Part shown: piece after piece, positions 1 to 34,013 of the stretch
Numbering within the stretch: the first letter of the stretch is position 1
Layout: every line of letters begins with the position of its first letter
Source: a virus
Lineage: Duplodnaviria > Caudoviricetes
Virus record (IMG/VR): IMGVR_UViG_3300037400_001189
Coordinates: 11,007 to 75,006 of that record
Strand: one strand, 5' to 3'
DNA length: 64,000 nt
Translations under genes and position numbers: made by a program
Notes under the pieces: generated by a model
Database searches by the model: none
Seen by the model: the letters and a program-made list of their open reading frames with translations, nothing else
What the model was told of the DNA's origin: nothing

Positions 1-1
1 C

Positions 2-3355: not shown

Positions 3356-3364
3356 ATGACCCTC

Positions 3365-5012: not shown

Positions 5013-5018
5013 ATAAAT

Positions 5019-5046
5019 AAGCCTCCTATATTGCTATAGGAGGCTT
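5019..5046 (-). terminator. Rho-independent terminator after the SSB gene
   Basis: AAGCCTCCTATA/TATAGGAGGCTT stem with TATTTATTT tail on the minus strand. Confidence 0.75.
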
Positions 5047-5090
5047 TGCTAAGGCATGTTGTTCTTTCTATTCTATACTTTTATCATTAT

Positions 5091-7915: not shown

Positions 7916-7936
7916 GGCATACCTCCATATGCCTTA

Positions 7937-7978
7937 AAAACGCTCCAGAATCGTTTCTAAGCGACTTTGGAGCGTTTT
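7937..7978 (-). terminator. Long hairpin with U-tail directly upstream of nrdG (terminator or attenuator)
   Basis: AAAACGCTCCA/TGGAGCGTTTT 11-bp stem with an inner stem. Confidence 0.5.
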
Positions 7979-8032
7979 ATGATAAATCATACGTCTCTGC
8001 TTAAACAGAGCATTCTAGGGGCACTGCAGGGC

Positions 8033-8455: not shown

Positions 8456-10304
8456 GGTAATACCGTTTAGACTCCTCTATCTGCCTGTCTTTGGAGAAGT
8501 TTGATATTCTCCTTAGATAGCCGATAATTCTAGTGGCATAGTCCAAGTCTGCAGAACCGCAGGAAGGACAGTACTTCAAGGTATGCTTGTCGATATGTCC
8601 ACACTGGTTGCAGATTGTAATCTTCACGTTGGTAGTCCAGTAGCTGCACCCTACCTGTGCAGCTATGTCCAGAAGCTTTTCATAGGTTTCCTTGTCTGGA
8701 TATTCTTCAAGCTGAAGATGGCATGCAGAACCTCCATCCAGATAGTCTACAATTTCCTTTCCATGAAGAACCATCTTGTCAAGAATGGTTATGTCTTCAG
8801 ATTCAGATGGGAAGAAATAGGAATTGTAGCAGTCTCTTGGAACATAGTATCCATCCTTCTTGTCCCATTGGGCAAACTTGACTCCAAGGGATTCGCCGGG
8901 AACCATTTCAGTGTTGATTTTAACTCCTGCATGCTTCCTGCATGTTTCCTTGTTGCAGTCGCTGATGGCTTCAAGAATGGCTGCACAGAACGACTTATAT
9001 TCCTGATTGTTGGAAGGCTCTATTCCGCATGCTTCTGCAGCTTCCACTAGACCATTGATGCCAATGGTAAGAAACTGCTTGTCAAGGGAAATGTAGCCTG
9101 CATCGTATACAGGAAGCATTCCTCCTGCCTGCAGATCCTTGAACAGAGATCTGTAAGCTAGCTGATACTTGTGCATGAGGAATATCTGTTTTTTCAGTTC
9201 AGGAACCAGATCATCTCTTACGTCTACTACAGGATTTATTCTGGAATATACGTCTTGAGTGAATCTATTCAGATTGAGAGATATTACGTTCATTGAACCA
9301 GTCTGAACTCCTCCTGCTCCCAATGAATAGGAGAAGTCATTTTTGATTTCTTCCAGCTGGTCTCCAATGTAGTTCCTGAGACGGCAGCAGGAAGAGAGAC
9401 TGTCTACAGTATCTGAAGTGTAGATAAAGAAAGAATTGCCTTCAGATAGTTCTTGTGCAGTGAATTCTCTATAATCCTTGTCCAGTACACTATGTCCATC
9501 GTGCAGAAGAGCTACGGTTACTACAGGGAAAGTAAGAAGAGCCTTGGTACGTTCCTTGTTGAACCATTTCATGAAGAACTTCTGCAGCTTGTCTACGGAT
9601 TCCCATTTAGGCTTGTCTCCGTCTGGGAAATAGAAGTTTCCAAACAGGGAATCAAAATAGAACTTGTCAAAGATTGACACGTTCCAAAACACGGATTGAA
9701 AACCGCGTGCAGATGCAGGCTGGTTAAGAGCATACACAGTCTGCTGAAGCTCCTGAGTCACTTCATGCTCATGCGTATCCAGATAGTCGTCTCCATAGTC
9801 CTTTCTTGCAAAGTGATCGAAGCACAGGAAGTATTCTACGGTAGCTACTGCTCCTGCAAACTGGGAAGATATTGCAAAGATAAGATTGATGAATCCGCCA
9901 TTGAATGAAGACAGATGCCTAGGTGCCTTGGATTCCCCACCAAATGCTTTCAGTCCATCCGTGAGAAACGGATACATGGAAATAGCTACGCAATAGGGAA
10001 GAAAGGCGCTAGTTTCGTCATGAGCATAAATAAGGTGGTCTTCAAGCTGCTTAATATACGTTTCAGCAATCTCATCTCCATACAGTTCCTTAATTTTTCT
10101 AGTTACCAAGCCTCTCTTGACCTGAATGTTGATATCCTTGTTTAATTCAGCAAGCATGGTAGCTACGTTCTTGTTGGATACATTGCTGTTAGCGTCAAAG
10201 GTGCTTCCAGTAGCTGCATTGGAAGCCCCTATATAGCTGTCGATGAAGTCTAGTTTAGTTTTTAGCTGTGATTCGGACAGCCTGCACATTTTAGCTTTTG
10301 CCAT
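8439..10304 (-). CDS. nrdD: Anaerobic (class III) ribonucleoside-triphosphate reductase
   Basis: LSSCCRL, VPGESL, Zn site CNQC...CPSCG, and glycyl-radical motif TRIIGYL. Confidence 0.95.
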   Translation of the reverse strand: MAKAKMCRLSESQLKTKLDFIDSYIGASNAATGSTFDANSNVSNKNVATMLAELNKDINIQVKRGLVTRKIKELYGDEIAETYIKQLEDHLIYAHDETSAFLPYCVAISMYPFLTDGLKAFGGESKAPRHLSSFNGGFINLIFAISSQFAGAVATVEYFLCFDHFARKDYGDDYLDTHEHEVTQELQQTVYALNQPASARGFQSVFWNVSIFDKFYFDSLFGNFYFPDGDKPKWESVDKLQKFFMKWFNKERTKALLTFPVVTVALLHDGHSVLDKDYREFTAQELSEGNSFFIYTSDTVDSLSSCCRLRNYIGDQLEEIKNDFSYSLGAGGVQTGSMNVISLNLNRFTQDVYSRINPVVDVRDDLVPELKKQIFLMHKYQLAYRSLFKDLQAGGMLPVYDAGYISLDKQFLTIGINGLVEAAEACGIEPSNNQEYKSFCAAILEAISDCNKETCRKHAGVKINTEMVPGESLGVKFAQWDKKDGYYVPRDCYNSYFFPSESEDITILDKMVLHGKEIVDYLDGGSACHLQLEEYPDKETYEKLLDIAAQVGCSYWTTNVKITICNQCGHIDKHTLKYCPSCGSADLDYATRIIGYLRRISNFSKDRQIEESKRYYHGHDG

Positions 10305-10312
10305 TGCACCTC

Positions 10313-10801
10313 CTATCGGGTGCCTGAACTGCCGAAGCCTTCAGCACCCCTTTCAGTTGAGTCTAATGTCTGAACTTCAATCATCTGCATGAGATAGGAT
10401 TTCTCTATGCAGAACTGGCCTATCCTGTCTCCCTTGGAGATGTTGAATTCATAGTCGTTGGAGTTGTGCATGATAACTCCAATGCTGCCACGATAGGTTT
10501 CGTCTATGGTTCCAGTATGAACAAACAGTCCTCTTGACGCTAAACCGCTTCTTCCTCTTACTATGCCGTGATAGCCTCTGGGGAGCTGCACGGCTATGTT
10601 GGAGTGAACTATGGTAGTGTCGTGAGGATAAACTACGATATCTACATCCGAATAGATATCTAGGCAAGCATCTCCTTCACGGGAATACTTGAAGGGAATG
10701 GCAGTGTCTGTAAGCTTTTTAAAACATACCTGAGCTAGAGTACGGTTAGACGATACTCCAAATTCTACATATGAAACGTCTGTTACTGTTGGGTTGAGCA
10801 T
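10313..10801 (-). CDS. dut: Trimeric dUTPase
   Basis: RGRSGLA, GTIDETYRG, GDRIGQ and RGAEGFGSSG motifs. Confidence 0.92.
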   Translation of the reverse strand: MLNPTVTDVSYVEFGVSSNRTLAQVCFKKLTDTAIPFKYSREGDACLDIYSDVDIVVYPHDTTIVHSNIAVQLPRGYHGIVRGRSGLASRGLFVHTGTIDETYRGSIGVIMHNSNDYEFNISKGDRIGQFCIEKSYLMQMIEVQTLDSTERGAEGFGSSGTR

Positions 10802-11901
10802 TTATCCTCCAGAGAAGCTATTGCATTCTCTATGTCTTCTAGGGAGGCTCCATTAGGAACCTCTGCAGTGTCGTACCAGTTGTAGCCTATCTCTCCTACT
10901 GCTTCGTTATGAACTATCTGGTCTTCCAGAAAGTCTGCAGTCATTATAGGGATGATAGTATCATTTACCCATTTAACTAGCTCTGCATCCTTGTCAATGT
11001 GAATATAGAGAGCATCGTAGATGGAAGAGATAACTTCCACTCTATTTTCTAGATGGTTCTCTGCTATCTTTTCATTGAATCTATGAAGAGAGAGAAGAGA
11101 TAGAATTGACCAGAACTGCGAACAGGCATTGAACACTGTCCGTATTTCCTTTTCAGGATGGTCTGTAGTGATTCTGCATCCTAATCCTAATGGGATATAA
11201 CCTTTGCTTTTAGCCTTGACTAGAACAGTGCTTCTCATCTTGTCTACTCCCTTGTACAGTTCATCGTGATATCTATGAAAGATATTCTCTGCCTGTTCTA
11301 GAGAGCATTTAATGGAAGAAGCTACTTTCTCAGGATATGCGCCGTAGTTTAATCCGAAGCTAACTGGTTTAGACTTTTGGCGTATAGCCTTCAATGCCTT
11401 ATTGCCATTGTCTACTTCTCTTTTAAATCTCTTTACGAATGCATAGAGGTCTTCTCCTTCTTCTCTAGGAAGAATGGCTTCTACTTCATCTGTAAAATAG
11501 TAGTAGGCATTCAAACAGTGACCATCTATGCCTTGAGTGAAGATTGCACATTTATTCTTGTCTCTGGACAGATTGGCTATTACCCTGTCTTCTAGAGCAG
11601 AGAAGTCAACTTGATAGATTAAATGGTCTTTGTCTGTAGACAAGCATTGTTTGATTGGCTTTGCATAGACAGAACCAGTGGAAGGAGCATTTAATAAATT
11701 AGGAGCAGAAGAAGTGAGACGAAATGTTTTAGTACCAAACAGTTTGAAAGAACCGTACAGCCTCCCATTAACAGTATTGTCATAGAAAGCTTTAATGAAG
11801 TTGTTTCTAATGATAGCTGCATTGCTGTAATCTAGCATAGCATTAACTACTTCCTTTAGCTGTTTCAGTTCTTCCAGAGACAAATCGCTTACTATAGGCA
11901 T
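10783..11901 (-). CDS. Family A DNA polymerase, part 3 (end of thumb, palm, fingers)
   Basis: TFRLTSSAPNL, motif A DFSALEDR, motif B RQKSKPVSFGLNYG, motif C SIYDAL. Confidence 0.9.
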   Translation of the reverse strand: MPIVSDLSLEELKQLKEVVNAMLDYSNAAIIRNNFIKAFYDNTVNGRLYGSFKLFGTKTFRLTSSAPNLLNAPSTGSVYAKPIKQCLSTDKDHLIYQVDFSALEDRVIANLSRDKNKCAIFTQGIDGHCLNAYYYFTDEVEAILPREEGEDLYAFVKRFKREVDNGNKALKAIRQKSKPVSFGLNYGAYPEKVASSIKCSLEQAENIFHRYHDELYKGVDKMRSTVLVKAKSKGYIPLGLGCRITTDHPEKEIRTVFNACSQFWSILSLLSLHRFNEKIAENHLENRVEVISSIYDALYIHIDKDAELVKWVNDTIIPIMTADFLEDQIVHNEAVGEIGYNWYDTAEVPNGASLEDIENAIASLEDKCSTQQ

Positions 11902-12218
11902 TACAGTTCATCACTCTTTTCATCAAAGATTTCGTTAGGCTTAAGCCAGCTGTACATATCAGCAAAATAAGCATAGCCTGCAATGTCCACTGCATTGTCT
12001 TGATTCCACTGGTCTAGATCTGGATGGATTCTAGCTATCTTTAACAGCATCATCATTACGGCTACGTCTCTAGGACGTATGTCTATGCCTAGAAAAGTAC
12101 TCCAGTATCTAGATATTAAGACAAATACATCTTCAGGATATCCACCACGTTTGCCAGAAATGATGTCCAATGCCTGACTAAGAACATTCTTTGTTTCCAT
12201 TCTGTTCTCCTTGCTCAA
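11901..12218 (-). CDS. DUF6378-like protein (dATP/dGTP diphosphohydrolase-related fold), inserted inside the polymerase locus
   Basis: RGGYPEDVF...WSTFLG...DVAVMMMLLKIAR...DNAVDIAGYA; own AGGAG RBS before MET at about 12200. Confidence 0.65.
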   Translation of the reverse strand: MSKENRMETKNVLSQALDIISGKRGGYPEDVFVLISRYWSTFLGIDIRPRDVAVMMMLLKIARIHPDLDQWNQDNAVDIAGYAYFADMYSWLKPNEIFDEKSDEL

Positions 12219-12984
12219 TTAAAGTATCTAGAAGCTTGTTAAGCTTCTCCAGTTCATCCCTGTTCCAGCAGGGATTGCCTTTGCCAGTAGTAGCTTCAGA
12301 CTGTATGCCAAGAGAGGAGAAGAATTCCGTCTTCTGCTTTGCAGAACCACAATTGAATTCTTCTGCTTCTTCAGTCATAGCCTTGGTAAGCCTAGGCTCT
12401 ATTTTGCTCTTATAGTAAATATCATACTTGTCTGAAGCTAGCTTAAGCATTGCTCTATGCTTTAAATCGTCTAAGCTTTTATGCTCAGGTTCTTCCAATA
12501 AAAGAGAAAGAACAGGATCCTTATGTACCTTTAGAAGAAGCTTCAGATCTTTTAGAGTCCATTCAGGCTGATAGTAATCCATTTGATTCGTATCTTTCAG
12601 TCTCTGATTAACTAGATAGCTTCTATGAATCTTGTTAGATGGATTGCATTCCTTTGGAGTGAAGTCTTCTACAGTCTTTGCCTTCTGCTGTATGCTAGTG
12701 CATTTTACAGCTTGAGACATTGCAGATTGTTCCTGTCTAAACTTCTGCATAAGAGGATTCTGAAGCATAGTATGCTGTACGTTAGCTAATACGTCTTCTA
12801 CGGTATCTTCTAGAACTCTGACTTTGGAAAGGTCTATTGGAATGCCTGCATTTTGCATTTTAATAATATCCGGAAGAAGCATTGAAACTATATGGTCATA
12901 GAACCATTTGCCATCCTGTTCAGGAGGCACTTCCATAGGTCTAGGAATAGGTAGATATTCAGACATTTCATTCATATCTTCCAT
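12178..12984 (-). CDS. Family A DNA polymerase, part 2 (linker and thumb)
   Basis: MQNAGIPIDL, FNCGSAKQKTEFF (cf. FNLNSPKQL) and TTGKGNPCW thumb motifs. Confidence 0.72.
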   Translation of the reverse strand: MEDMNEMSEYLPIPRPMEVPPEQDGKWFYDHIVSMLLPDIIKMQNAGIPIDLSKVRVLEDTVEDVLANVQHTMLQNPLMQKFRQEQSAMSQAVKCTSIQQKAKTVEDFTPKECNPSNKIHRSYLVNQRLKDTNQMDYYQPEWTLKDLKLLLKVHKDPVLSLLLEEPEHKSLDDLKHRAMLKLASDKYDIYYKSKIEPRLTKAMTEEAEEFNCGSAKQKTEFFSSLGIQSEATTGKGNPCWNRDELEKLNKLLDTLIEQGEQNGNKECS

Positions 12985-13643
12985 GCCTCCAAGTCTTTGA
13001 GTATGTCCTGATACAGTGCATAAGTTGCACAGGCATCAGTAGCTGAATATTCAAGCATATAATCCTTATTCTGCTCTTCAAGAGTGAAACTGTCTTTAGA
13101 CAGTCCCCATTTGGAATACTTGTAGGACATTAATGTTTTCAAGCCAGTTTCTCCCTTGAGATGGTCTGCATTGTTGAGAATAGATTTAGCTAGAAGCTGA
13201 GTGTCTATTACATGCTTGGGAAGCTTATGAGTATAGTAGTAGATTATGCCTCCATCATAACCAAAGTTATGAAAGAGCATTGTCTTGTCTGTATTGACAA
13301 GAAATCTCATTAGCATGTCTACCATGTTAGGGTCTTCACAGACTAGAACATAAGCATCGTGGTCAGACCATGCCACTGACAGATGGGTAACTGTAGTTAA
13401 TGATGGATGTGATAGACCTGTACTGTTGACTGATTGCTTAAGCAGACGCTTCTCTTCTCTAGACAGAACAGGAGAGAACTTATCCAGTCTCCACTGATCC
13501 ATCTTCTTTTGAGAGCCATCTGCTCTTGGAGCCACTTCAAAGTCAGCAGCAAACAGGTCTGGAAGGCTTTCAAGCCATTTGCTTCCCCAGTATGTGCTAG
13601 ACGTGCTCTTGAAGCTTACATGCAGCGGCTGAGAGCTTGTCAT
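12972..13643 (-). CDS. Family A DNA polymerase, part 1 (3'-5' exonuclease)
   Basis: ExoI ADFE, ExoII FHNFGYD and ExoIII YSATD motifs. Confidence 0.82.
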   Translation of the reverse strand: MTSSQPLHVSFKSTSSTYWGSKWLESLPDLFAADFEVAPRADGSQKKMDQWRLDKFSPVLSREEKRLLKQSVNSTGLSHPSLTTVTHLSVAWSDHDAYVLVCEDPNMVDMLMRFLVNTDKTMLFHNFGYDGGIIYYYTHKLPKHVIDTQLLAKSILNNADHLKGETGLKTLMSYKYSKWGLSKDSFTLEEQNKDYMLEYSATDACATYALYQDILKDLEAWKI

Positions 13644-14680: not shown

Positions 14681-14699
14681 GGAATTCTCCTAATATGAG

Positions 14700-14771
14700 A
14701 GCCAGAGGCAGGACTTGAACTTGCAACTTTGAGATTACAAGACTCTTGCTCTACCGTTGAGCTACTCCGGC
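14700..14771 (-). tRNA. tRNA-Thr(TGT), imperfect stems, no encoded CCA
   Basis: GCCGGAG/CTCTGGC acceptor, GCTC/GAGC D-stem, CTTGTAA loop, TTCAAGT T-loop. Mismatches at pairs 27-43 and 31-39 and one in the T-stem. Confidence 0.75.
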
Positions 14772-24359: not shown

Positions 24360-24400
24360 TTTAAATTCTCCTTTGCAGTTCTAGTGTCTTCTCAATTAAA

Positions 24401-24426: not shown

Positions 24427-24503
24427 TGGCGGGTCTAGAAGGAGTCGAACCTTCGACCAACAGCTTAGAAGGCTGATGCTCTATCCTACTGAGCTATAGA
24501 CCC
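24427..24503 (-). tRNA. tRNA-Arg(TCT) with CCA
   Basis: Complete cloverleaf: GGGTCTA/TAGACCC acceptor, CTTCTAA loop, TTCGACT T-loop. Confidence 0.93.
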
Positions 24504-24506: not shown

Positions 24507-24590
24507 TGGTACAGGCAGAGGGATTCGAACCCTCATGGCATAAGCCGGAGCATTTTGAGTGCTGTGCGTATTCCATTCCGCCATGCCTGC
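24507..24590 (-). tRNA. tRNA-Leu(CAA) with long variable arm and CCA
   Basis: GCAGGCA/TGCCTGT acceptor, CTCAAAA loop, GGC/GCC variable arm, TTCGAAT T-loop. Confidence 0.92.
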
Positions 24591-25590: not shown

Positions 25591-26589
25591 CTAAATAGAC
25601 GTTCGTATGCAAATGGATGCACAATGTCCATTTAAACCTACCGAATTGATGCAGGCTACGGAGTTCTTAGGAGAGGATGCCACGGTAAGAGCAGTCTCCA
25701 CTGCTCCACATGCTCCCAGCATGTGTCCCAGATGCTTCTTCCAAGTGAATGTCTTAGGCTTCTCTTTAAATTCAAACATCTCGCAATGTCTCTTTACTGC
25801 TTCCATCTCTACTTCGTCTCCCATTGGAGTGCCTGTGGCATGCATGGAGAGAACGGAAGGAACGAAGTTGAAGCATGCAGTTCTCATGCATGCAAATATT
25901 TCGTCTGGAGAAGATGCAGTTCTAGACATTCCTGTATGTTCAGAGAAGCCTTCTATGATTCCATAGATGTTTCTGCCATGCTCTAGTGCATCGTAATAGT
26001 CTTCCAGAACAAGCAGTCCACAGCCTGAAGAGAGAACTGTTCCTGTCCTGTCTGGATCTAGAGGCATGCATTCATGCTTAGTGAGAAGATGCATCTTCCT
26101 GAAGAACTCAAGAGTGTTGAGGTCTAGTGCATTTGTACCTCCCACTACTGCCATGTCTGCATAGCCATGCCTGATAGCCTTCACTCCTGCTATGATGTTG
26201 GAAAGAGAAGTGCAGCATACGGAAGATATGCCTTGCACTGTTCCTCTGAATCTGTTTGCAAGAGCTACAGTATCTGCAACATTGGAATTAAAAGACTTGT
26301 AGAAGTCTGATGCACGTTCTAGTTCCTTTCCATGAGTACTGATCTCTCCTATGTAGACATCAGTGTTAGGAGCAAACCATAGAGCTTCCTTTTCCTTGAT
26401 GGCATCTAGAGTGTCTAGTGCCATCTTTGAAGAAGAAATGTTTCCACAGGAACCATACGGATAGGGATAGTCTTCATGCTTTCTATAGCATTTCATTCCC
26501 TTCTCTATGAATTCCTTGGTGGATTCTAGTGAGCCAAGAGGAGTAGTCACTCCCATTCCAACGATAGCTACTGGAATATAGTGGTTCAT
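25591..26589 (-). CDS. Beta-ketoacyl-ACP synthase (FabF/FabB-like condensing enzyme), compact
   Basis: VAIVGMGVTTPLG, catalytic SVCCTS, AVVGG, CMPLDPDRTG, LLVLE, MHATGTPMGD, KKHLGHMLGACG and NSVGLNG motifs. Confidence 0.9.
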   Translation of the reverse strand: MNHYIPVAIVGMGVTTPLGSLESTKEFIEKGMKCYRKHEDYPYPYGSCGNISSSKMALDTLDAIKEKEALWFAPNTDVYIGEISTHGKELERASDFYKSFNSNVADTVALANRFRGTVQGISSVCCTSLSNIIAGVKAIRHGYADMAVVGGTNALDLNTLEFFRKMHLLTKHECMPLDPDRTGTVLSSGCGLLVLEDYYDALEHGRNIYGIIEGFSEHTGMSRTASSPDEIFACMRTACFNFVPSVLSMHATGTPMGDEVEMEAVKRHCEMFEFKEKPKTFTWKKHLGHMLGACGAVETALTVASSPKNSVACINSVGLNGHCASICIRTSI

Positions 26590-26613
26590 TTAATAGCCTC
26601 CTATAGGGGTATT

Positions 26614-26626
26614 TGACATAGTGTCA
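26614..26626 (-). promoter_or_regulatory. Hairpin element TGACA-TAG-TGTCA upstream of the KAS gene (candidate phage RNAP promoter)
   Basis: 5-bp stem with 3-nt loop; related to the early hairpin family; about 25 nt before the ATG. Confidence 0.45.
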
Positions 26627-26720
26627 CTATAGGGAAAATAGGGTTCAAAAAGAGATTTGTCATATAGGTTGACAGATTTTTTTACAAGATTATTTCTGAA
26701 TAGAAAGCTGTACAAAAAAT

Positions 26721-26750
26721 AAGGGAGAGACTCCGAAGAGTCCCTCCCTT
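26721..26750 (-). terminator. Terminator after the RNA polymerase gene
   Basis: GC stem with TTCG loop on the minus strand and a T-tail. Confidence 0.75.
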
Positions 26751-26763
26751 TGTAATTTTCCTG

Positions 26764-28488
26764 CTATTTCATGGCTGTGCCAAAGAACTGAGGCACTTCC
26801 TCTCTGTTAACGTCACGGATAGTCTTGGTGTTGCCTATGCTGTCCATGAAGTTTCTGAGAATGGAATGCCTGTCCTTGTATATCTCGTAGAGCTTGGACG
26901 TATAGAGAATTCTGACTCTATGAGCATCGTTTGGATGAACTATGGCAGCATCATGATTGCATAGAATCCAGTTCATGTTAGCTCCTATATAGTTCATCAC
27001 CTGAGAATCAAGATTGTGGACTAGCAGAGTGCAGTGGTATCTGACAAACTGCTTAACGTCTACAACCCTATCAGCTCTAGCGTACGGCTTATAATAGCCG
27101 TTAGTAGTAGTATATATCTTGACATGCTGCTTTTCCTCTGAATCCTTGAATTTGGAGCAGTTTACAGTGAATTCCTCGTTCCATATCTTCACTTTCCTAG
27201 TCTCTGCAGGAACGCACTTGAGAATGGTATCCTTGAAGAGATTGGGAGCAAAGAATCTTCCTCCTCTCTCGAAATCCTTCTCTATGTTCTCCTCGTCTTC
27301 CTGAGTATACTCAAGATGGTGACGATCCCATAGATCTGCAGGAGAGGCAGAAGAACCATAGATTCTAGGAGTTACTGCAAACTTGACATACTTCCGAGGA
27401 AGATAGTCTACAGTCCAGTAGTCTTCTAGAACATACGGATTTATCAAGTTAGTAAGATTCATGAGATTATGGTCGTTCATGAGAACACCCATAATCTGGA
27501 CAGCAGATGCAGTAGCATCTACCTCGATAGGCACTGTCCAGTGGTCAGTGTCTTCCAGATTCTCATAGATTCTCTTGAGCCATATCTGTTCGTGAAGGTC
27601 TGCAGATTCAGGGATTTCCCTGTTCTCTGCATGAAGCTTTCCAAGCTCTATCTTCTCCTTGAGAGTTCTAGGCTTGTCTCCGAATATCTCTGCTATAAAG
27701 AGATATACGTTCTTCAGTCCAGCAGTGGTAAGCTTCTGGACAGGACACTTCACGATAGATCTGGCTACCTTATGAGAGATGGGATTGAACACTCTATGAA
27801 CGCAGTCGAATATAGCTCTTCCACGGGAATCGGAAGTGCATTCGCCTAATACATAGCGTTCATCCTTGGATGCTCCCGTATAGAGCAGAAGAGATTCAAC
27901 TATTTCGGAATATGTAGGCTTCTCTCCTTCATATCCTTCTTGAGGCTTCTGATAGTCTGCATAGACTTCCTTAGCCATCTCTTCAAGATATTCCTTGACG
28001 TACTTTACGTCATACTTGAAGGGACAGGAGCCAGACTTGGCAAAGCCAAGACGCTTGAGACCTACGTCTCTAGTAACCTTGGCTCCATGACTGTTCACAG
28101 TCCTAGTCCTGTTCCAGTGCCTAGGGAGCTTGGAAGACATCATAGTCTTTCTTATCTTGAACTCTCTAATCACTGAATTAAGCTCTTCTTCGCTTACCCA
28201 CTTGAGAAGCTTTTCATAGTTGAGTTCAATGGTTCCAAACTTGCCTACAGTCTTGACCAGTATCCAGCCCGTAACGCCCAAGATCATGAAGATCTTGTTA
28301 AGATGCTTGGAATCTATGCGTTCAATCCAAGCATTGAGACTCATGGTCTTTCCATGGAAGAACTTCACAACCATGCGGTTCCAAAGTTCCTCTATGTCTC
28401 TCTTTTCATCTTCATTTACATGAATGTATTCCCACAGCTTTGCAGGAATGTTCACGATTCCTTGAAGAATCTCTTCACGTCTAGCCAT
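26764..28488 (-). CDS. Single-subunit T7-family RNA polymerase (N4 RNAP II counterpart), 574 aa
   Basis: DSRGRA, motif A EVDATASAVQI, motif B RKYVKFAVTPRIYG, VHNLDS, and motif C NHDA. Confidence 0.88.
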   Translation of the reverse strand: MARREEILQGIVNIPAKLWEYIHVNEDEKRDIEELWNRMVVKFFHGKTMSLNAWIERIDSKHLNKIFMILGVTGWILVKTVGKFGTIELNYEKLLKWVSEEELNSVIREFKIRKTMMSSKLPRHWNRTRTVNSHGAKVTRDVGLKRLGFAKSGSCPFKYDVKYVKEYLEEMAKEVYADYQKPQEGYEGEKPTYSEIVESLLLYTGASKDERYVLGECTSDSRGRAIFDCVHRVFNPISHKVARSIVKCPVQKLTTAGLKNVYLFIAEIFGDKPRTLKEKIELGKLHAENREIPESADLHEQIWLKRIYENLEDTDHWTVPIEVDATASAVQIMGVLMNDHNLMNLTNLINPYVLEDYWTVDYLPRKYVKFAVTPRIYGSSASPADLWDRHHLEYTQEDEENIEKDFERGGRFFAPNLFKDTILKCVPAETRKVKIWNEEFTVNCSKFKDSEEKQHVKIYTTTNGYYKPYARADRVVDVKQFVRYHCTLLVHNLDSQVMNYIGANMNWILCNHDAAIVHPNDAHRVRILYTSKLYEIYKDRHSILRNFMDSIGNTKTIRDVNREEVPQFFGTAMK

Positions 28489-28541
28489 TGAATACCTCCT
28501 AGTACTAGTCGTAGGTGATTTTCCTGAGACTTAAAAAACAA

Positions 28542-28561
28542 GGGAGAGCCGAAGCTCTCCC
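28542..28561 (-). terminator. Terminator with UUCG loop
   Basis: GGGAGAGC-TTCG-GCTCTCCC followed by TTGTTTTTT on the minus strand. Confidence 0.8.
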
Positions 28562-28571
28562 CTATTTCTAG

Positions 28572-29099
28572 CTAATCAAAGCTCTCGCGAAGAGCCTGAC
28601 GGATGTCCTCGTCAGACTCCTCTTCATCGTTTTCCAGAAGCTCACGCTTCTTTTCGACAAAGGCTTCCCAGTTCTCGTCAGTGATGTCGGCAAAGTCTTC
28701 ATCGCTGTAGGACAGGCTGTAGCCATCGCAGAATGCCTTGACGATTTCAATCGTCTTGGCACAGTCGCGCTTCTTGCCTTCCACCATAGTGCCATCGGCA
28801 CTGATGAAGGGAGCAACGCCACAATACTTCCTGTACATGTCGATAAAGACAGGAGGAAGGCCAATGGCCTTGTGCACCGGAGACTTGGCATTGCGAGAGT
28901 TCACGCATTGCTTGATCATGCCAAGGACAAACTGGCAGAGTTCGTTCTGGGTGCTATAGTCAACCCAGACCTGAGAGACCTTGCGACCGAGACAAGAAAG
29001 AGCCTGAGAGCGAAGCTCGTCCATGATTGCAGCATTCTTTTCAGAAGTGGCAATAGCGGCAGAGAAGGCACCAGAGATACGGGAAGAATCGAACGACAT
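28572..29099 (-). CDS. Early hypothetical protein with acidic C-terminus
   Basis: 175-aa ORF with RBS; more GC-rich codon usage than the structural genes. Confidence 0.75.
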   Translation of the reverse strand: MSFDSSRISGAFSAAIATSEKNAAIMDELRSQALSCLGRKVSQVWVDYSTQNELCQFVLGMIKQCVNSRNAKSPVHKAIGLPPVFIDMYRKYCGVAPFISADGTMVEGKKRDCAKTIEIVKAFCDGYSLSYSDEDFADITDENWEAFVEKKRELLENDEEESDEDIRQALRESFD

Positions 29100-29208
29100 G
29101 GTAGTACTCCTTATGATTTTGATGGATTATTTAAGGACTAGTGTCCTCTAAATAAAAAAAGAAAAGGGTGGAACACGAACCATGAAGTTCATGTCCACCC
29201 TAGTCTCT

Positions 29209-29451
29209 TTAGAGGAGAGCCCTAAGGCTCTCTACTGCCTTGGGATCTACAGCAGCCAGCTTCTCGCTGGCATCCTTGGCAATCTCACAGGAGAGAGCCT
29301 TTGCCTGACCTCGAAGCGAGGTTGTAACATCTGACACAGTGTCAATGGAATCAGACATCACATTGAGACACTTTTCGTAAGTGTTAGGAGAAACCTTTTT
29401 AAGAATGAGAGCACCAAGACCAAGACCGATAACTGTACGAATCATAACCAT
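29209..29451 (-). CDS. Early protein with N-terminal hydrophobic helix, paralog of 32794-33090
   Basis: Aligns along its length with 32794-33090. Confidence 0.75.
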   Translation of the reverse strand: MVMIRTVIGLGLGALILKKVSPNTYEKCLNVMSDSIDTVSDVTTSLRGQAKALSCEIAKDASEKLAAVDPKAVESLRALL

Positions 29452-29657
29452 ACTCCTTGAATTAAAGATAATTTGCGCTAGTGCGCTATCTAAAAAAAGA
29501 AAAGGAATAGGAAGGAATCTAGACGGTAGGCCGCAAGGAAGAGAATTGAAGAGAGAGTTGGAGGAAGATAATAGGCTGGGACGGTGCAGACGTGTATAAA
29601 GTGTATTTCAAAAAACAAGGAGAGACCTTTCGGTCCCTCCTTGTCTTCTGCACCTCC

Positions 29658-29978
29658 TTATGCAGCAATGTGAAGACGGATATAGTCAGCTAGCCATTGA
29701 GGCAGCATTGTCGTATCTCCATATCTCTTGCCATAGCCACCCTTGTAGACGGATATGAGAGGAAGATACGGATATACTAGTGCCACACGGACAGCTCCCA
29801 TAGTCTTGAAGACTACGAGAAGACGTTCCTTGCCAGATTGGCTAATATCCTTGCCAATCACTGTCACTTCCTTGAAGGAAGTGTTCCCTTCAAACATGAA
29901 GGAAACGATGCGCTGGTAAGGATCGCAGAGATGGAAACGGGAAGAAATTCTCATGGCAACCTCCTTTAGTTTAGCCAC
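29658..29978 (-). CDS. Early hypothetical protein
   Basis: 106-aa ORF; AGGAGG RBS suggests a start at the second Met. Confidence 0.65.
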   Translation of the reverse strand: MAKLKEVAMRISSRFHLCDPYQRIVSFMFEGNTSFKEVTVIGKDISQSGKERLLVVFKTMGAVRVALVYPYLPLISVYKGGYGKRYGDTTMLPQWLADYIRLHIAA

Positions 29979-30187
29979 TCAATTTCGGAACTGAATTCAT
30001 GCGTACCTTGGTGCATATGCACGATGTAGGAAGGATAGCCTTCACATTCCACCAAGGCATTGAAGTAATGGCTATTGCTGTTCTGGTCATCTTCTTCAAC
30101 AGTATCCTTCTGGATGTAGCTAAGAAGAGAACGGTCAGAACGAATGGCACGATGCATGATTTCGAGATAATCAGAATCAGAATACAT
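29966..30187 (-). CDS. Early hypothetical protein (acidic)
   Basis: Start re-called at MYSDSD with an AGGAGG RBS. Confidence 0.65.
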   Translation of the reverse strand: MYSDSDYLEIMHRAIRSDRSLLSYIQKDTVEEDDQNSNSHYFNALVECEGYPSYIVHMHQGTHEFSSEIEWLN

Positions 30188-30270
30188 AGCAGTACCTCCT
30201 AATGGATTGCTATCTAAAAAAAGAAAAAGATGGAACACTGCTCTAGACAGCATTTCATCCTTTCTCTCTC

Positions 30271-30633
30271 CTAAAGCTCCACTATATTCATGTTAAACCT
30301 AACATTCATATAGTCAGCTAGCAATCTTCTATGGCAGAACTTGCCACTTGCTTCCCAGCATAACAATAGCACATTCTGCCTACGTTCCTTAGCAATTAGC
30401 CTTTCAGCTAAATACTTTAAAGTATTATCCTTATCCAAAAGGATATTTAAATACTTTCTAGTATATTCATTGCTATCGCCTGTAGCCTTATATCTAGTCA
30501 GCATCTCCCATGTAGGAGCCAGCCAAGTCAACTGGCAATCTGGCTTAAAATAGCTAGGAACAGTACGGCTAATGGCAATCCTGAACGTATCAGGATACTT
30601 TACTGCCTTGGCATAGTAACTAGTGCAAATCAT
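30271..30633 (-). CDS. DUF488-family protein
   Basis: CTSYYA, IAISRTVP, LAPTWEML and LLCWE...FCHR motifs; start re-called at MICTS. Confidence 0.75.
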   Translation of the reverse strand: MICTSYYAKAVKYPDTFRIAISRTVPSYFKPDCQLTWLAPTWEMLTRYKATGDSNEYTRKYLNILLDKDNTLKYLAERLIAKERRQNVLLLCWEASGKFCHRRLLADYMNVRFNMNIVEL

Positions 30634-30717
30634 ATCTACCTCCTTAGGCATAATTACCCTAGTTAAAAAAAGAAAAAATAAAGGAGCCTAGGATTTCTCC
30701 TAGACTCCTTCATCTAT

Positions 30718-31002
30718 TTAGTCCTCGAAGTAGTGGTATTCCGCATCGTCAATAGCCTTTTGAGCTATTTCAGACCATGTGTGAATCTTATAGTTGCATT
30801 CGAAAGCCCACTGAATAGCGTTATACGACTCCTCTTCAGAGAGGTAGAACTTATAGCTCTGCTGAGAGTAGTCGTACCACCTCACCACGATCTCCAGATA
30901 TTCTGGATACTCGTAGATATCCAGATCCATGACCTGTGCATGCTCGTCTGCATCCTGAAGGGACATGAGAATGCTCTTGAAATTGTGGTAGCTAATCGAC
31001 AT
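30718..31002 (-). CDS. Small acidic early protein
   Basis: 94 aa, D/E- and aromatic-rich; RBS present. Confidence 0.7.
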   Translation of the reverse strand: MSISYHNFKSILMSLQDADEHAQVMDLDIYEYPEYLEIVVRWYDYSQQSYKFYLSEEESYNAIQWAFECNYKIHTWSEIAQKAIDDAEYHYFED

Positions 31003-31086
31003 GGCTAATCTCCTTGGATTTAGATTGTCAGAGGCTAATGCCTCCTAAATAAAAAAATAAAGGGAGCCGTTAGGCTCCCAGTATTG

Positions 31087-31236
31087 CTAAGACTGATAGG
31101 GCATAGGCCCAATGGATTCTCCCATGTCTTCCTCTGTACCATTAGGCATAAAGGATTCCATCATTTCCATTTCTTCTTCTCTCTGAATGAGCATTTCAAT
31201 CTGCTCTTCAGACAGGCTGTCAATAGTGCATCCCAT
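31087..31236 (-). CDS. Small very acidic early protein, 49 aa, not in the ORF track
   Basis: Translated by hand: MGCTIDSLSEEQIEMLIQREEEMEMMESFMPNGTEEDMGESIGPMPYQS; AAGGAG RBS; own terminator. Confidence 0.65.
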   Translation of the reverse strand: MGCTIDSLSEEQIEMLIQREEEMEMMESFMPNGTEEDMGESIGPMPYQS

Positions 31237-31286
31237 TGCTAGTCTCCTTGAATTTTAAAGGAGGAGCCGAAGCTCCTCCCATTCTG

Positions 31287-31469
31287 CTAGAAGTCAGGAC
31301 AGTAGTCTTCGTAGTTGTACAAAGCACTATCACCGAATGAAGAATCTATATCTTCATACAGATCTCCATTCATAATTGCCTCTATAGCTCTCTTTGAGTT
31401 CTCTTCAACAGTGAGTTCATCGCTGTAGTCGAGTTCAAAGCCAAGTGCCATAAGAGTAGCAGTATCCAT
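31287..31469 (-). CDS. Small very acidic early protein
   Basis: 60 aa with only two basic residues; AGGAGG RBS. Confidence 0.7.
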   Translation of the reverse strand: MDTATLMALGFELDYSDELTVEENSKRAIEAIMNGDLYEDIDSSFGDSALYNYEDYCPDF

Positions 31470-31555
31470 AATTTCCTCCTAGGGATTTAAGGACTAGGCA
31501 TAATTGCCTATATAATAAAAGAAAAAGGAGGAGCGTTAGCTCCTCCAATTCTTCT

Positions 31556-31858
31556 TTAGCTGTTTTCTATCTGCCTCATTCTCTTTTCGAGAATAGATGC
31601 AGCTTCTAGAACAGCTCTTGCTGCTGAATCAGTCATTTCTCCCTGTTTTTCAATTAAAGAGAAATACATCTCTTCAATTTCAAAGTAGGAGAGAACCTTA
31701 TGGTACTTTCTGTACCATAAAGATTCTTCTTCAGTATTCTGTTCTCCATTCCATTCATGATCTAATGAATAGATGGAGACTTCATAAGCAAGATTCTGGA
31801 TTTCTGGATTTTCAGATACTCCTGAAATCATGCTTGCGATTCTGAATACTTCTGTCAT
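31556..31858 (-). CDS. Small acidic early protein
   Basis: 100 aa, E-rich; AGGAGG RBS. Confidence 0.7.
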   Translation of the reverse strand: MTEVFRIASMISGVSENPEIQNLAYEVSIYSLDHEWNGEQNTEEESLWYRKYHKVLSYFEIEEMYFSLIEKQGEMTDSAARAVLEAASILEKRMRQIENS

Positions 31859-31974
31859 TTTCTAATCCTCCTTTGGATTGATAAAGGCATAACTGCCTGC
31901 ATAATAAAATAAATACTTGACATTGGGACTAGGGAAGACATAGGTATGGAATGTCAGGAAAATGACAGGGAAAT

Positions 31975-32120
31975 TTGAGTAGTGATGTACTCATGTACTA
32001 CTGTACATATATCTTATACATGAGAATGATGTGCCAATGCACTTAGTACTTAAGTGCTAGTAATAGTGCTAGTAAAGTACTAGTGGAAGTGTCTAATGTG
32101 TATAACATGTGTCTAACCTC
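31975..32120. repeat. Non-coding tract rich in TAGTA/AGTAC words with a central palindrome
   Basis: GCACTTA-GTACT-TAAGTGC inverted repeat at about 32039-32057 and multiple GTACT/TAGTA words. Confidence 0.45.
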
Positions 32121-32167
32121 TCGACAAAAAATAAGGAGGCAGGAGCCTAAGCTCCCACCTCCAGATA

Positions 32168-32404
32168 CTACAGCAAACCGTAGTCGCCTTCGAGGACATC
32201 CTCGATTGAACGACAAGTCTTCTTGTCCCTACGGCGCATAGCCGTATCGAATTCAGCTTCCGAGTAGTTGGTGTGCAGGATATCCACAGTCCTCTCCTGC
32301 CAGTAGGCGAAGATGGACCACATGTGGATCTGATCGTCCCTGTTCATAAGAGCAAGGTCAATATTCCTGTAACCGTAGTACTCGAACATATCGTTGATAG
32401 ACAT
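32168..32404 (-). CDS. Early hypothetical protein
   Basis: 78 aa; AGGAGG RBS. Confidence 0.7.
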   Translation of the reverse strand: MSINDMFEYYGYRNIDLALMNRDDQIHMWSIFAYWQERTVDILHTNYSEAEFDTAMRRRDKKTCRSIEDVLEGDYGLL

Positions 32405-32500
32405 AACAGCCTCCTATGGCTTTAATTGTCAGGACATAATTGTCCTATCTAAAAAAAGAAAAGGTCCACACCTCCGAAGAGATGCAGACCTTGTTGATGT

Positions 32501-32725
32501 TTAGAAGGGAAGCTCCATGACTTCTAAGCCATAGAACTGGAGCACAATAACCTGAGATGCAGTGCCTTGGAAGCACCAGTCACCGTCTTCACGGTCCCAG
32601 AGCTTCCAGCCACAGCGATACTGCAGGTTGGAGTACCGAATGTTCCTGCCTTGTGACAGCGTAGCCATGACCTCATCCATAAGGTCACGGTCGTTACATT
32701 CGAAGTAAACGAACTCTTCGCTCAT
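32501..32725 (-). CDS. Early hypothetical protein
   Basis: Start re-called at MSEEFVY with an AAGGAGG RBS. Confidence 0.65.
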   Translation of the reverse strand: MSEEFVYFECNDRDLMDEVMATLSQGRNIRYSNLQYRCGWKLWDREDGDWCFQGTASQVIVLQFYGLEVMELPF

Positions 32726-32793
32726 GTTGTCCTCCTTTGGACAAAAACTGACCTGCATCCCCGAAGGGACACAGGTCAGGAAGGGAGCAACGG

Positions 32794-33090
32794 TTACGGA
32801 CGGCGAACTGCACGGCGAGATGCAGGACGCACAGGCTGCTGAGGCTGCTGTCCATCGAGCAGAGCACGGAGCTCTTCGATAGCAGCAGGGTTCACTGCCT
32901 GCAGACGCTGGGTAGCATCCGCAGCAGCCTCGGAAGTGTAAGCCTTCACCTGACCACGGACAGCCGTGGTGAGGTCAGCAGCGGAGTCGATGATGTCGGT
33001 AGCAGCCTGCACTGCCTGCTCGTATGCACGAGGGCAAGCACGCTTTGCGACAAAGCCAGCGACAGCGAGACCGATGATGGTCTTAAACAT
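32794..33090 (-). CDS. First early gene; paralog of 29209-29451
   Basis: MFKTIIGLAVAG...AVRGQVKA...AVNPAAIEELRALL. Confidence 0.78.
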   Translation of the reverse strand: MFKTIIGLAVAGFVAKRACPRAYEQAVQAATDIIDSAADLTTAVRGQVKAYTSEAAADATQRLQAVNPAAIEELRALLDGQQPQQPVRPASRRAVRRP

Positions 33091-33185
33091 GGTATACCTC
33101 CTACGGTATATTTTGTTGCAGCATAATTGCTGCTATTTAACAAAAGAAAGGAGCGAAGCGACCAGATACATTTCCCCTGTGGCAG

Positions 33186-33350
33186 GAGCACAGGACAGCA
33201 TAGCACACACCTACCCCCACCCCCTATGGCACAGGGACAGCATGGCACAGCAGGGACAGCAGGCAGGAGAGAGCACAGTGCAGCACAGCACAGGTGCACA
33301 GGCAGCACACAGTACCGCAGGCTCGATAAGGGGCTCCACAGCACACGACA
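33186..33350 (+). repeat. GC-rich tract of GCACAG-type hexamer repeats at the junction of the divergent arms (likely genome end region)
   Basis: Six exact GCACAG (33188, 33229, 33245, 33271, 33281, 33296) plus GCACAC/GGACAG variants. Confidence 0.7.
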
Positions 33351-33538
33351 CCGGGGGGAGTCTTCGATTTCTTGAGCTCGGTGGCGCAGTGCTACCTCCA
33401 TAAAAAATTATTAAAATTTCAAGTATAATTTTGACCAGTATGCTATGGAGATTTATATGGAACAGAACAGATGGTTTTTCTTTATATGGCTTTGGAACTT
33501 GATTAAGAAGGTTAATAAATTATTAGGAGGACACTAGT

Positions 33539-33856
33539 ATGAAAGCTATGATTAGCCAGCCTATGGCTGGAAAGACTGATGAAGAAATACAGATGGCTAA
33601 GATTAAAGCTTCTAAAGATTTGGAAGATATGGGATATGAAGTGGTAGATACTCTCTTTAGCGGTGACTGGTGCAATCGTGAATCACTGAAAAGACTAGGC
33701 ATAGCTAATATTCCTTTATGGTTTCTTTCCAAGTCTCTTGAGAAGATGAGCGAATGCGATGCAGTGTATTTCTGCAAGGGATGGGCTAATGCAAGAGGAT
33801 GCAAGGTAGAGCATGAAGCTGCTCTTAGATATGACTTAAGGTGCATTCATGAATAG
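33539..33856 (+). CDS. DUF4406 / nucleoside 2-deoxyribosyltransferase-like protein
   Basis: MISQPMAG, SKSLEKMSECDAVYFCKGW and RGCKVE motifs. Confidence 0.75.
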   Translation: MKAMISQPMAGKTDEEIQMAKIKASKDLEDMGYEVVDTLFSGDWCNRESLKRLGIANIPLWFLSKSLEKMSECDAVYFCKGWANARGCKVEHEAALRYDLRCIHE

Positions 33857-34013
33857 ATTCAAGATAGCCAGAAGACTTATAGTATGGTTTATGAGTCTAT
33901 GGGACGATAACTGGTGGTACAGCTACAGGTATGACAGATGGTTTCCCAAGTGCAGGAACTGCTATGGAGAAAGAACATGGAAATGTCCTGTAGACTGTGA
34001 AGGAGACAGGTAA
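33849..34013 (+). CDS. Small Trp/Cys-rich protein, 54 aa, not in the ORF track
   Basis: MNRFKIARRLIVWFMSLWDDNWWYSYRYDRWFPKCRNCYGERTWKCPVDCEGDR; its TAA overlaps the terminase small subunit ATG. Confidence 0.55.
   Translation: MNRFKIARRLIVWFMSLWDDNWWYSYRYDRWFPKCRNCYGERTWKCPVDCEGDR

Follow-up and report, generated by a model that had tools for sequence, protein, structure and literature searches.

The window analyzed here, a 64,000-nt stretch of a 75-kb genome, derives from a very divergent N4-like phage, in which two RNA polymerase genes frame the questions that follow:

61891-64000, plus strand: N-terminal part of the giant virion RNA polymerase (vRNAP) ORF, running on across the contig junction
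1-2098, plus strand: C-terminal end of the same ORF, which ends at window position 2098
26764-28488, minus strand: second RNA polymerase (RNAP), unsplit, 574 aa, T7-like (N4 RNAPII-like), at the far end of the early region

The contig overlaps with itself at its ends, and the giant ORF occupies genome positions 1-13101, corresponding to some 5,000 aa in all. It matches phrog_2206 (virion RNA polymerase) with an E value of 5.5e-105, the polymerase region covering profile positions 1028-1376 (4e-13) and 1556-1882 (1.7e-5), and judged from these profile matches the phage encodes an N4-type vRNAP homologous to N4 gp50. The 574-aa enzyme matches phrog_2051 (1e-10) and phrog_414 (4e-5), both named RNA polymerase, and its family comprises 86 homologues, all from metagenomic contigs.

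Minus-strand early genes and plus-strand late genes diverge at 33.1-33.5 kb. From 29127 to 33158, the minus (coding) strand carries nine elements, which fill the 4.6 kb adjoining this point and are directed away from it, with element 1 located about 300 nt from the divergence. By analogy with the N4 layout, this would be the end of the genome that enters first; the contig itself assembles as a circle. All elements follow a common plan, a T-rich block leading via TAG into a hairpin, and are listed with their scores against our covariance model (R1), the folding energy of the template strand as single-stranded DNA, and orthologous copies in the related genomes L001, L035 and L146:

33112-33158, minus strand: element 1, T-block and TAG, hairpin 33118-33133 (6-bp stem, coding-strand loop ATTA), 51.5 bits; gene 32794-33090 downstream, no upstream terminator stem; fold -6.6 kcal/mol, z -2.9; L001 copy identical
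32425-32470, minus strand: element 2, T-block, TAG, hairpin 32431-32446 (6 bp, ATTA), 52.8 bits; gene 32168-32404 downstream, adjoins terminator 32461-32492; fold -4.7 kcal/mol; stem of the L146 orthologue shorter by one whole base pair
31878-31922, minus strand: element 3, AT-rich block, hairpin 31885-31898 (5 bp, GTTA), 38.1 bits; gene 31556-31858 downstream; fold -4.3 kcal/mol; G-C to C-G swap in the L001 orthologue
31489-31533, minus strand: element 4, T-block, hairpin 31495-31510 (6 bp, ATTA), 49.9 bits; gene 31287-31469 downstream, adjoins terminator 31527-31546; fold -4.7 kcal/mol; coding-strand C.A mismatch, equivalent to a template-strand G.T wobble, in the L001 orthologue
31024-31070, minus strand: element 5, T-block, hairpin 31031-31044 (5 bp, ATTA), 45.0 bits; gene 30718-31002 downstream, adjoins terminator 31062-31079; fold -4.9 kcal/mol, z -3.7
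30639-30684, minus strand: element 6 (weak hairpin), T-block, stem-loop 30647-30658 with 4 pairs, including a coding-strand T.G wobble (template-strand A.C mismatch), 44.8 bits; SD of gene 30271-30633 only 1-2 nt away; template fold no better than shuffles; wobble kept in L146, perfect pairs in L001
30188-30235, minus strand: element 7 (degenerate), perfect T-block and TAG, 3-bp stem 30197-30206, 42.9 bits carried by the linear block; stem overlaps the SD of gene 29966-30187; fold -0.9 kcal/mol, z -0.5; proper 5-bp hairpin in L001 and L146
29467-29511, minus strand: element 8, T-block, hairpin 29475-29486 (4 bp, ACTA), 47.0 bits; gene 29209-29445 downstream, no terminator stem directly 5'; fold -5.0 kcal/mol; loop ATTA in L001 and L035
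29127-29173, minus strand: element 9, T-block, hairpin 29134-29147 (5 bp, ACTA), 54.1 bits; conserved 175-aa gene 28572-29099 downstream, adjoining the RNAP gene; fold -4.5 kcal/mol, z -3.7; in the L001 orthologue, two pairs altered by compensatory changes and a GCTA loop

The initial annotation of this DNA had treated an A-tract as a conserved adjunct of the hairpin. Conserved it is, but the linear block is in fact the most conserved part of the element: about 20 nt on the coding strand, composed of CC, a T-run with one C and then A-NN-TAG, with T, A and G positions that are invariant in all 20 aligned copies as well as in seven further copies from L146. Between the final G and the stem base there are 0-2 nt, irrespective of stem length (4 to 7 bp), and the block is retained in the elements without a terminator stem (1 and 8) and in the one without a real hairpin (7). 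Immediately 3' follows the inverted repeat, its 4-7 bp stem enclosing an AT-rich centre with the consensus N-Y-Y-A on the coding strand, equivalent to T-R-R-N on the template strand. Congruent with the previously proposed departure from the 3-nt loop of N4, this loop measures 4 nt in 28 of 28 copies from this genome and relatives, and both central template-strand bases are always purines; the last A is invariant and the third position is T in 20 of 21 copies. The loops are of the A-Y-T-A form, never the UUCG or GAAA type present in the phage's own terminators. The stem also displays base preferences, the closing pair being A-T or C-G and the fourth purine-pyrimidine. As had been described, the copies sit just 5' of early gene starts, each 12-40 nt (loop end to ATG) from a small gene, while four genes in the region, that of the RNAP among them, have no copy. 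Downstream of the loop no nucleotide is conserved at an N4-like distance (positions +11 to +16, counted from the loop start, carry <0.3 bits); at +12/+13 there is a weak pyrimidine-A step, and G is almost missing from the expected start window.

Ten stem-loops had originally been quoted and all were recovered in place, one of which is however a different element:

26614-26626, minus strand: stem-loop with a 3-nt loop, 5' of the ketosynthase-like gene 25591-26589

It was rejected as a family member due to its loop length, the lack of an R1 match at E up to 10, and broken pairing in L001, where three of five pairs are lost and one more is only a G.T wobble. What is conserved at this site, in place of the stem, is the linear core surrounding GACACTAT together with a duplicated CCCTATAG.

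Seven elements carry perfect hairpins with stems of 4-6 bp (loop starts 33127, 32440, 31893, 31504, 31039, 29482 and 29142), all within one 4-kb stretch of one strand, whereas the remaining ~146 kb (both strands) contain only 13 hairpins with R-Y-T-A loops, mostly of 4 bp and inside genes. The clustering thus exceeds chance. As template-strand single-stranded DNA these seven fold with -4.3 to -6.6 kcal/mol (z -2.4 to -3.7), and the copies at 30647 and 30197 are not convincing (-0.5 and -0.9 kcal/mol, z about 0). For covariation we exploited 18 distinct copies from this genome and relatives, with 500 shuffles and slid controls. Paired cells amount to 88.9% against 51.1% when shuffled, a value reached by none of the 500 shuffles, the covariation score is 0.93 against 0.24 (slid controls at most 0.19), and all six stem pairs vary on both sides. 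Judged by this covariation, hairpin pairing is under selection, and the earlier statement that stem sequences differ while pairing is kept holds. The count of nine to ten covarying hairpins does so only in part, with strong covariation and seven perfect hairpins, but two copies weak on the template strand and the 26614 stem-loop outside the family.

With R1 the nine copies score 38-54 bits, the next best match in the entire 75-kb genome reaching 12 bits, and no copy occurs in the 25 kb of replication genes downstream. Among relatives, compensatory changes were found at orthologous copies in four close genomes, but no match was recovered in 35 distant ones. At least four such changes, one of them the loss of a whole base pair, are independent among genomes with 86-96% identical RNAPs. 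Imperfect pairs occur in both senses, coding-strand T.G in element 6 and template-strand G.T in the L001 copy of element 4, and there is thus no RNA-type strand bias, which fits a DNA-level role; the mirror case in L001 cancels the strand argument that the initial annotation had drawn from the 30647 wobble. The nearest other lineage (L036 and L039, RNAP about 41-42% identical) carries a linear motif without hairpin before its first early genes. A look-alike precedes the RNAP gene of the present phage, which lacks a class-A element and has a motif starting ATCACCTA at 28505-28522, and the first gene after the RNAP gene is fronted by a different, SP6-like core.

Several elements abut terminator-like hairpins:

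32461-32492, minus strand: intrinsic-terminator-like hairpin, T-tail running into element 2
32748-32779, 32135-32162, 31527-31546, 31062-31079, 30676-30715 and 28543-28562: further terminator-like hairpins

The scan detected 15 terminators against 5.4 expected, mostly on the minus strand. In five of the six copies having a terminator stem, 16-18 nt separate this stem from the final G of the block; the remaining copy has 23 nt. We also considered the elements as intrinsic terminators themselves and discarded the idea: their T-run is located 5' of a small hairpin with A-rich sequence 3', and the real terminators are separate GC-rich hairpins upstream. Sigma-70-like sites number 12 against 13.4 expected, none of them upstream of the element-linked genes, with no -35/-10 pattern, and no Rfam family reaches its gathering score within 26000-34000. 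In addition, SD-containing hairpins are present near the elements, indicating that the phage uses RNA structure around start sites.

Collectively, the vRNAP homologue, the position at the early end, the selected pairing and the lack of host-type promoters support an interpretation of the nine elements as putative early promoters for the injected vRNAP, which would be recognized through an extruded DNA hairpin and have a predicted start site and N4 geometry. We favor this interpretation, at somewhat less than an even chance. Negative supercoiling would extrude the inverted repeat as a small cruciform, assisted by the ready melting of the T/A tract and by the AT-rich centre. The polymerase would then bind the template-strand hairpin, the T-R-R-N loop offering central purines as in N4, and initiate ~13 nt further 3' than the first loop base, at the weak pyrimidine-A step that occupies the position equivalent to the N4 start, yielding leaders of about 20 nt. 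The non-template oligo-dT run may double as the U-tail of the preceding terminator, and could also be a good loading site for host SSB, which opens the non-template hairpin in N4. That the loops are not RNA-optimized counts for a DNA-level hairpin, and elements 6 and 7 remain eligible despite their short spacing, as in N4 no more than about 20 nt separate P2 and the start codon of gp2. On the other hand, the absence of a fixed-distance nucleotide downstream of the loop (T4-G in N4, G in LUZ7), the two of nine copies that do not fold on the template strand, and the hairpin-free early motif of L036 and L039 all count against this interpretation. Moreover, the invariant TA-G at the stem base whatever the stem length, and a block kept without hairpin, are not predicted by the N4 model. 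The original equation with N4 vRNAP promoters stands for the polymerase, the position beside the early/late divergence, the selected pairing and the missing sigma-70-like promoters, and falls short for the conserved nucleotide at N4 distance.

The prominence of the linear block and its final G at the stem base make a linear promoter with a transcribed 5' hairpin a serious rival, albeit a somewhat unlikely one. Here, the ~17-nt T-rich block ending in TA would be read by vRNAP or the 574-aa RNAP, with the start at the invariant G. The hairpin would form the first 14-18 nt of the transcript, for 5'-end protection or nascent-RNA release, or act as a downstream DNA structure holding the AT tract open. 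Such a model accounts for the invariance of the block, its fixed placement at the stem base and its retention without terminator stem or hairpin, and the 16-18 nt that separate terminator stem and G correspond roughly to a T7-type promoter in length. N4 (PMC4496689) and LUZ7 (PMC9163698) both prefer to initiate with G, the early transcripts from N4 P1 and P2, read against published +1 positions, likewise seem to start with a hairpin at +1, and L036 and L039 have their linear early motif. It leaves unexplained, however, the conserved loop and stem base preferences; a pure RNA stabilizer would be expected to carry stable tetraloops like those of this phage's terminators, the L001 copy tolerates a coding-strand mismatch, and N4 vRNAP requires a promoter hairpin 5' of the start for its activity (PMC4496689).

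It is improbable that the hairpins instead serve the 574-aa RNAPII-like enzyme, with vRNAP using another signal such as the motif of the RNAP gene. The middle promoters of LUZ7 do consist of hairpins, located about 15 bp 5' of the start and with loops of 3-4 nt (PMC9163698), and the RNAP gene itself has the L036/L039-like motif in place of an element. Nevertheless, the DNA carrying element 1 is expected to enter first, at a time when no second polymerase exists yet, the genes behind the elements are small orphans rather than the replication genes, whose 25 kb contain no copy, and the first gene after the RNAP gene has the SP6-like core. Of the LUZ7 middle features only the loop length fits; GC-rich stems of at least 6 bp and linkage to middle genes do not.

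Still less probable is a purely RNA-level element, a processing, stability or translation signal in read-through transcripts with no promoter function. The hairpins do lie within 5' leaders on the coding strand, the U.G-compatible wobble of element 6 is kept in two genomes, and the nearby SD-containing hairpins exemplify RNA structure around starts. Strong terminators precede the units, however, and a promoter is consequently needed between terminator and SD, where no other candidate is found; furthermore, the loops are not stable RNA tetraloops, the C.A mismatch in L001 is tolerated and Rfam provides no match. Finally, it is highly improbable that the elements are operators of a dimeric DNA-binding regulator or promoters of the host polymerase: an inverted repeat precedes each early gene and the flanking block could be a regulator site, but stems that differ between copies while pairing is kept are the reverse of operator behavior, and host-type -35/-10 patterns are missing.

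Returning to DNA-hairpin promoters for vRNAP, the elements most likely serve as its early promoters, an expected feature of an N4-like phage in an unusual form. The form, with a 4-nt loop and a T-block, is new. Conceivably, though this is an unlikely extension, a divergent N4-like branch characterized by a vRNAP of roughly 5,000 aa, a second RNAP that is unsplit and strong SD sites re-coded its vRNAP promoter into a strand-asymmetric oligo-dT/TAG block with an adjoining 4-nt-loop hairpin, both fused to the terminator before them, the nine cassettes allowing stepwise genome entry. If so, nine terminator-promoter cassettes, one per 300-700 bp, would let a few injected polymerases pull the genome in step by step, each newly entered promoter taking over from the previous one.

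How do the elements compare with known systems? Promoters of the T7 group (T7, T3, SP6) act as duplex of ~17-23 bp (-17 to +6) with a TATA-G end and +1 G. They share with the elements a ~17-nt conserved linear block ending in TA and then G, and their polymerases are of the same single-subunit family. In contrast, the block here is of low complexity, a T-run that matches none of the T7, T3 and SP6 consensus sequences, and T7-group promoters have no covarying hairpin with a conserved loop.

N4-type promoters are conserved from -17 to +1, with a 3-nt loop containing a central purine and a start 11 nt from the loop centre, and are active on single-stranded or supercoiled DNA with host SSB, which opens the non-template hairpin. 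The early promoters P1-P3 of N4 are vRNAP DNA-hairpin promoters with hairpins at -17 to -5, in which conserved stem bases mix with free ones that need only pair (PMC4496689). The elements resemble them in their placement at the presumed first-entering end of a phage with a giant virion RNAP, the short inverted repeats (5-7 bp in N4) with free but paired stem bases, the loop centre (pyrimidine on the coding, purine on the template strand) and the proximity of some copies to the start codon, as for P2. They differ in the 4-nt loop, the lack of a GC-rich heptamer and of a conserved T4-G between hairpin and start, the invariant T-rich block with TAG upstream of the stem, to which P1 and P2 have nothing similar, and the nine copies, fused to the preceding terminator where a terminator stem is present.

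As to the Pseudomonas phage LUZ7, its transcripts start with G 13-14 nt from the hairpin centre, whereas no downstream G is conserved here, the stems of its middle promoters measure at least 6 bp and are GC-rich, as compared to 4-6 bp of mixed composition, and a T-block has not been described. Nine early start sites were however mapped in LUZ7 by ONT-cappable-seq, the majority having a hairpin with 4 bp or more (PMC9163698). Nine copies, which the initial annotation had set apart as three times as many as in N4, are thus not new; together with the 3-4-nt loops of the LUZ7 middle promoters, both the copy number and the 4-nt loop have precedent within the family.

The contig of 75,006 bp, 64 kb of which lies in the window, has overlapping ends and so assembles as a circle. 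The minus strand carries the genes between about 33.1 and 3.4 kb, the plus strand those from 33.5 kb onward. The source phage is N4-like but very divergent. A plus-strand ORF of about 5,000 aa, occupying 61891-64000 and continuing across the contig junction through 1-2098, matches the PHROG "virion RNA polymerase" (phrog_2206, E 5.5e-105), and separate matches of this ORF also cover the N4 polymerase-domain part of the profile; we refer to it as vRNAP, the injected virion RNA polymerase. It exceeds N4 gp50 in length by some 1,500 aa and displays a weak NADAR-like match in its N-terminal third (Pfam 24 bits, below the cut-off). A second polymerase, an unsplit T7-like RNAP of 574 aa, is encoded at 26764-28488 and is followed on the minus strand by rIIA, primase and NrdD. 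Megablast against public phage genomes returned no match to the phage, tblastn of the vRNAP centre against the same genomes yielded a weak match to Alteromonas N4-like phages only, and a sequence search of the solved structures in the PDB gave no match for either polymerase. Three tRNA genes (Thr-TGT, Arg-TCT and Leu-CAA; 14699-14771, 24427-24503 and 24507-24590) are present among the middle genes of the minus strand.

By analogy with N4, the physical genome ends should be located at the divergence point, 33.1-33.5 kb, in which case the early genes would be the small ones on the minus strand between 33.1 and 28.5 kb. Directly 5' of the first of these, a GC-rich, non-coding stretch at 33183-33353 contains degenerate direct repeats on GCACAG/CTGTGC with a spacing of about 42 nt, and repeats of this type occupy the same place in the close relative L001 (5440-5600) and in L036 (about 5190-5280), a distant relative. 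The stretch may represent the terminus of the genome or a site for packaging or related to ejection.

All ten stem-loops of the initial annotation were recovered at their positions. Nine elements at 29127-33158, here class-A and numbered from 33158 downward, share one order on the coding (minus) strand in 9/9 copies: a T-rich block is followed by a hairpin (stem of 4-7 bp, loop of 4 nt), after which come an A-rich spacer, the SD and the ATG. The block consists of CC, a T-run with one C, and then A-NN-TAG. The loops observed are ATTA, ACTA, GTTA, GCTA, TCTA and ATCA, with an invariant last A and a T as third base in all copies but one. A whole-genome scan for perfect R-Y-T-A-loop hairpins placed seven in this 4-kb stretch, on the minus strand; elsewhere in the genome such hairpins are scattered, mostly of 4 bp and within genes. 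As single-stranded template DNA the seven fold with -4.3 to -6.6 kcal/mol (z -2.4 to -3.7), whereas the stem-loops at 30647 (element 6) and 30197 (element 7) fold no better than shuffles. A covariance model of the 46-nt element scored the nine copies at 38-54 bits, the next best match in the whole genome reaching 12 bits. The stem-loop at 26614, previously counted with this family, has no covariance-model match, and in L001 its pairing is broken and a linear core is kept instead; it belongs to another class.

We then turned to four close relatives retrieved with the RNAP protein (86-96% identity), namely L001 (the same contig as L147) from IMG/VR, the JGI contig L146, and L034 and L035 from Logan and ENA. 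Orthologous places in all four carry the same elements, and the stem differences compensate.

Stem changes between genomes.
Element 2: whole base pair lost in L146
Element 3: G-C to C-G
Element 6: T.G and A-T to C-G and G-C
Element 9: two pairs altered

When 20 copies, 18 of them distinct, were aligned on the loop, 88.9% of cells were paired as compared to 51.1% in shuffles, congruent with the earlier observation that the stems vary while pairing is kept. The covariation score was 0.93 versus 0.24, slid controls did not exceed 0.19, and both-side changes are present at 6/6 stem pairs. The model detected ten copies in L001, and in L146 it detected seven. Class-A elements are absent from 35 distant loci (RNAP 29-42% identical), where no match exceeded 19 bits and a simple scan found N-Y-T-A-loop hairpins only sporadically. 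The T-block pattern gave about 100 single, unspecific matches in IMG/VR, the three best model-scored of which have no hairpin. Enrichment of 9-mers across loci was too noisy for use.

The minus strand is enriched in terminator-like GC-rich hairpins whose loops are of UUCG or GAAA type (15 versus 5.4 expected), and six lead straight into the T-block of the following element. Sigma-70-like promoters are not enriched (12 versus 13.4 expected), with none before these genes, and no Rfam family matches the element region. Thus, promoter-gene-terminator cassettes follow one another in this region, and the element is the sole candidate promoter of each. A 74-aa gene with its own terminator (32501-32725, minus strand) is absent from L001, where the terminator of the first gene runs directly into the orthologue of element 2; gain and loss of early cassettes thus affects entire units. 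The non-coding spacer of 200 nt between a terminator and element 3 (31920-32135, minus strand), also found in L001 (about 6330-6560), holds short direct repeats, such as AGTGCTAGTAA twice at 32053-32075, and could encode a small RNA, serve as an origin or bind protein as an array. Many SDs are enclosed as the loop of a covarying short hairpin, (A/G)TAGGA or TGGAGG being flanked by 3-6 complementary bases per side, which looks like a recurrent RBS structure in the phage clade.

Hairpins with the SD in the loop.
33092-33112, minus strand, window
32407-32420, minus strand, window
7917-7935, minus strand, window
5295-5312, L036
5965-5982, L036
7002-7018, L036

Our leading interpretation, held at somewhat under an even chance, is that the elements are N4-type promoters, in which the polymerase would bind the hairpin on the template strand and transcription would begin downstream of it. 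Such promoters have precedent within the family; the template-strand loop has central purines, a trait of N4 too, and the stem-internal base preferences point in the same direction. So do the imperfect pairs, which lack a strand bias (T.G on the coding strand in element 6, G.T on the template strand in the element 4 copy of L001), and the element loops, which avoid the stable RNA tetraloops found in the phage's terminators. If transcription starts at the position equivalent to that in N4, which shows a weak pyrimidine-A step, the leaders would be about 20 nt. However, there is no true conservation downstream of the loop, where G is almost absent, and an invariant block is not something this model would predict. 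Cruciform extrusion is known to be favoured by AT richness at the centre as well as in the flank, and the preferred ligand of bacterial SSB is oligo-dT; through these properties the T-block could plausibly play a part under the N4-type interpretation.

A second reading likewise fits the data but is less likely, at rather more than a one-in-four chance: the T-block itself would be the promoter, with the invariant G as +1. The block is the most conserved part of the element, spans 16-18 nt in most copies when counted from the terminator stem, and persists where the terminator stem (elements 1 and 8) or a real hairpin (element 7) is missing, while the G is 0-2 nt from the stem base regardless of stem length. 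Moreover, by published +1 positions, the N4 P1/P2 transcripts appear to start with a hairpin at +1. Such a linear promoter would however account neither for the conservation of the loop nor for the base preferences of the stem.

That the second polymerase reads the elements is unlikely. Element 1 and the inferred end of the genome are about 300 nt apart, so that it lies within the DNA expected to enter first, and the elements precede small orphan genes only, with 0 copies in 25 kb of replication genes. We assign them to vRNAP mainly because this position is the territory of the injected vRNAP in N4 and LUZ7. Caution is warranted, as the RNAP gene has no class-A element and is instead preceded by a linear motif starting ATCACCTA (28505-28522, minus strand), which closely resembles the linear motif before the first early genes of L036 (three times) and L039 (once), two loci of another lineage with RNAPs about 41-42% identical. 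The motif is kept in L001 and L035 and differs by one substitution in L034; it may be a second promoter class common to the wider clade. Additional sites are a duplicated CCCTATAG with the core GACACTAT, matching the SP6 promoter core, before a ketosynthase-like gene (26600-26640, minus strand), and GACACTAG between a terminator and the rIIA start (24380-24395, minus strand); these may be promoters for the 574-aa RNAP.

A role of the elements in RNA only is more improbable still, and any other explanation has a very slim chance. A start directly after the loop, taken as the TATA of T7-type promoters, was rejected, considering that the TAG-to-loop spacing ranges between 3 and 6 nt and that the 3' arm would be template locked in the stem. 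Likewise dismissed were TAG as a stop-codon trap, as upstream genes end before the terminators, and an operator for a dimeric protein, as the stems covary without the sequence being kept.

The findings would allow promoters and terminators to be annotated readily in an uncultured phage lineage and, provided that the polymerase domain proves expressible, would supply a compact orthogonal part for transcription. To our knowledge, vRNAP promoters have been mapped in two phages only, N4 and LUZ7, both as 3-nt-loop hairpins. N4 has three hairpin promoters with 3-nt loops; in LUZ7, hairpins accompany nine early start sites, and the middle promoters have 3-4-nt loops (PMC4496689, PMC9163698, PMC3715699). 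The copy number, initially described as three times that of N4, is thus not new, and the hairpin promoter set is no new principle. The clade rather represents a natural variant whose loop length differs, whose linear block dominates and whose stems have clearly evolved by compensation, making it testable how structure and sequence share in vRNAP promoter recognition and whether the hairpin lies before or after the start. As compared to N4 and LUZ7, the loop is uniformly 4 nt, a T-rich/TAG block dominates, each element is fused to the preceding terminator, and the phage belongs to a different lineage.
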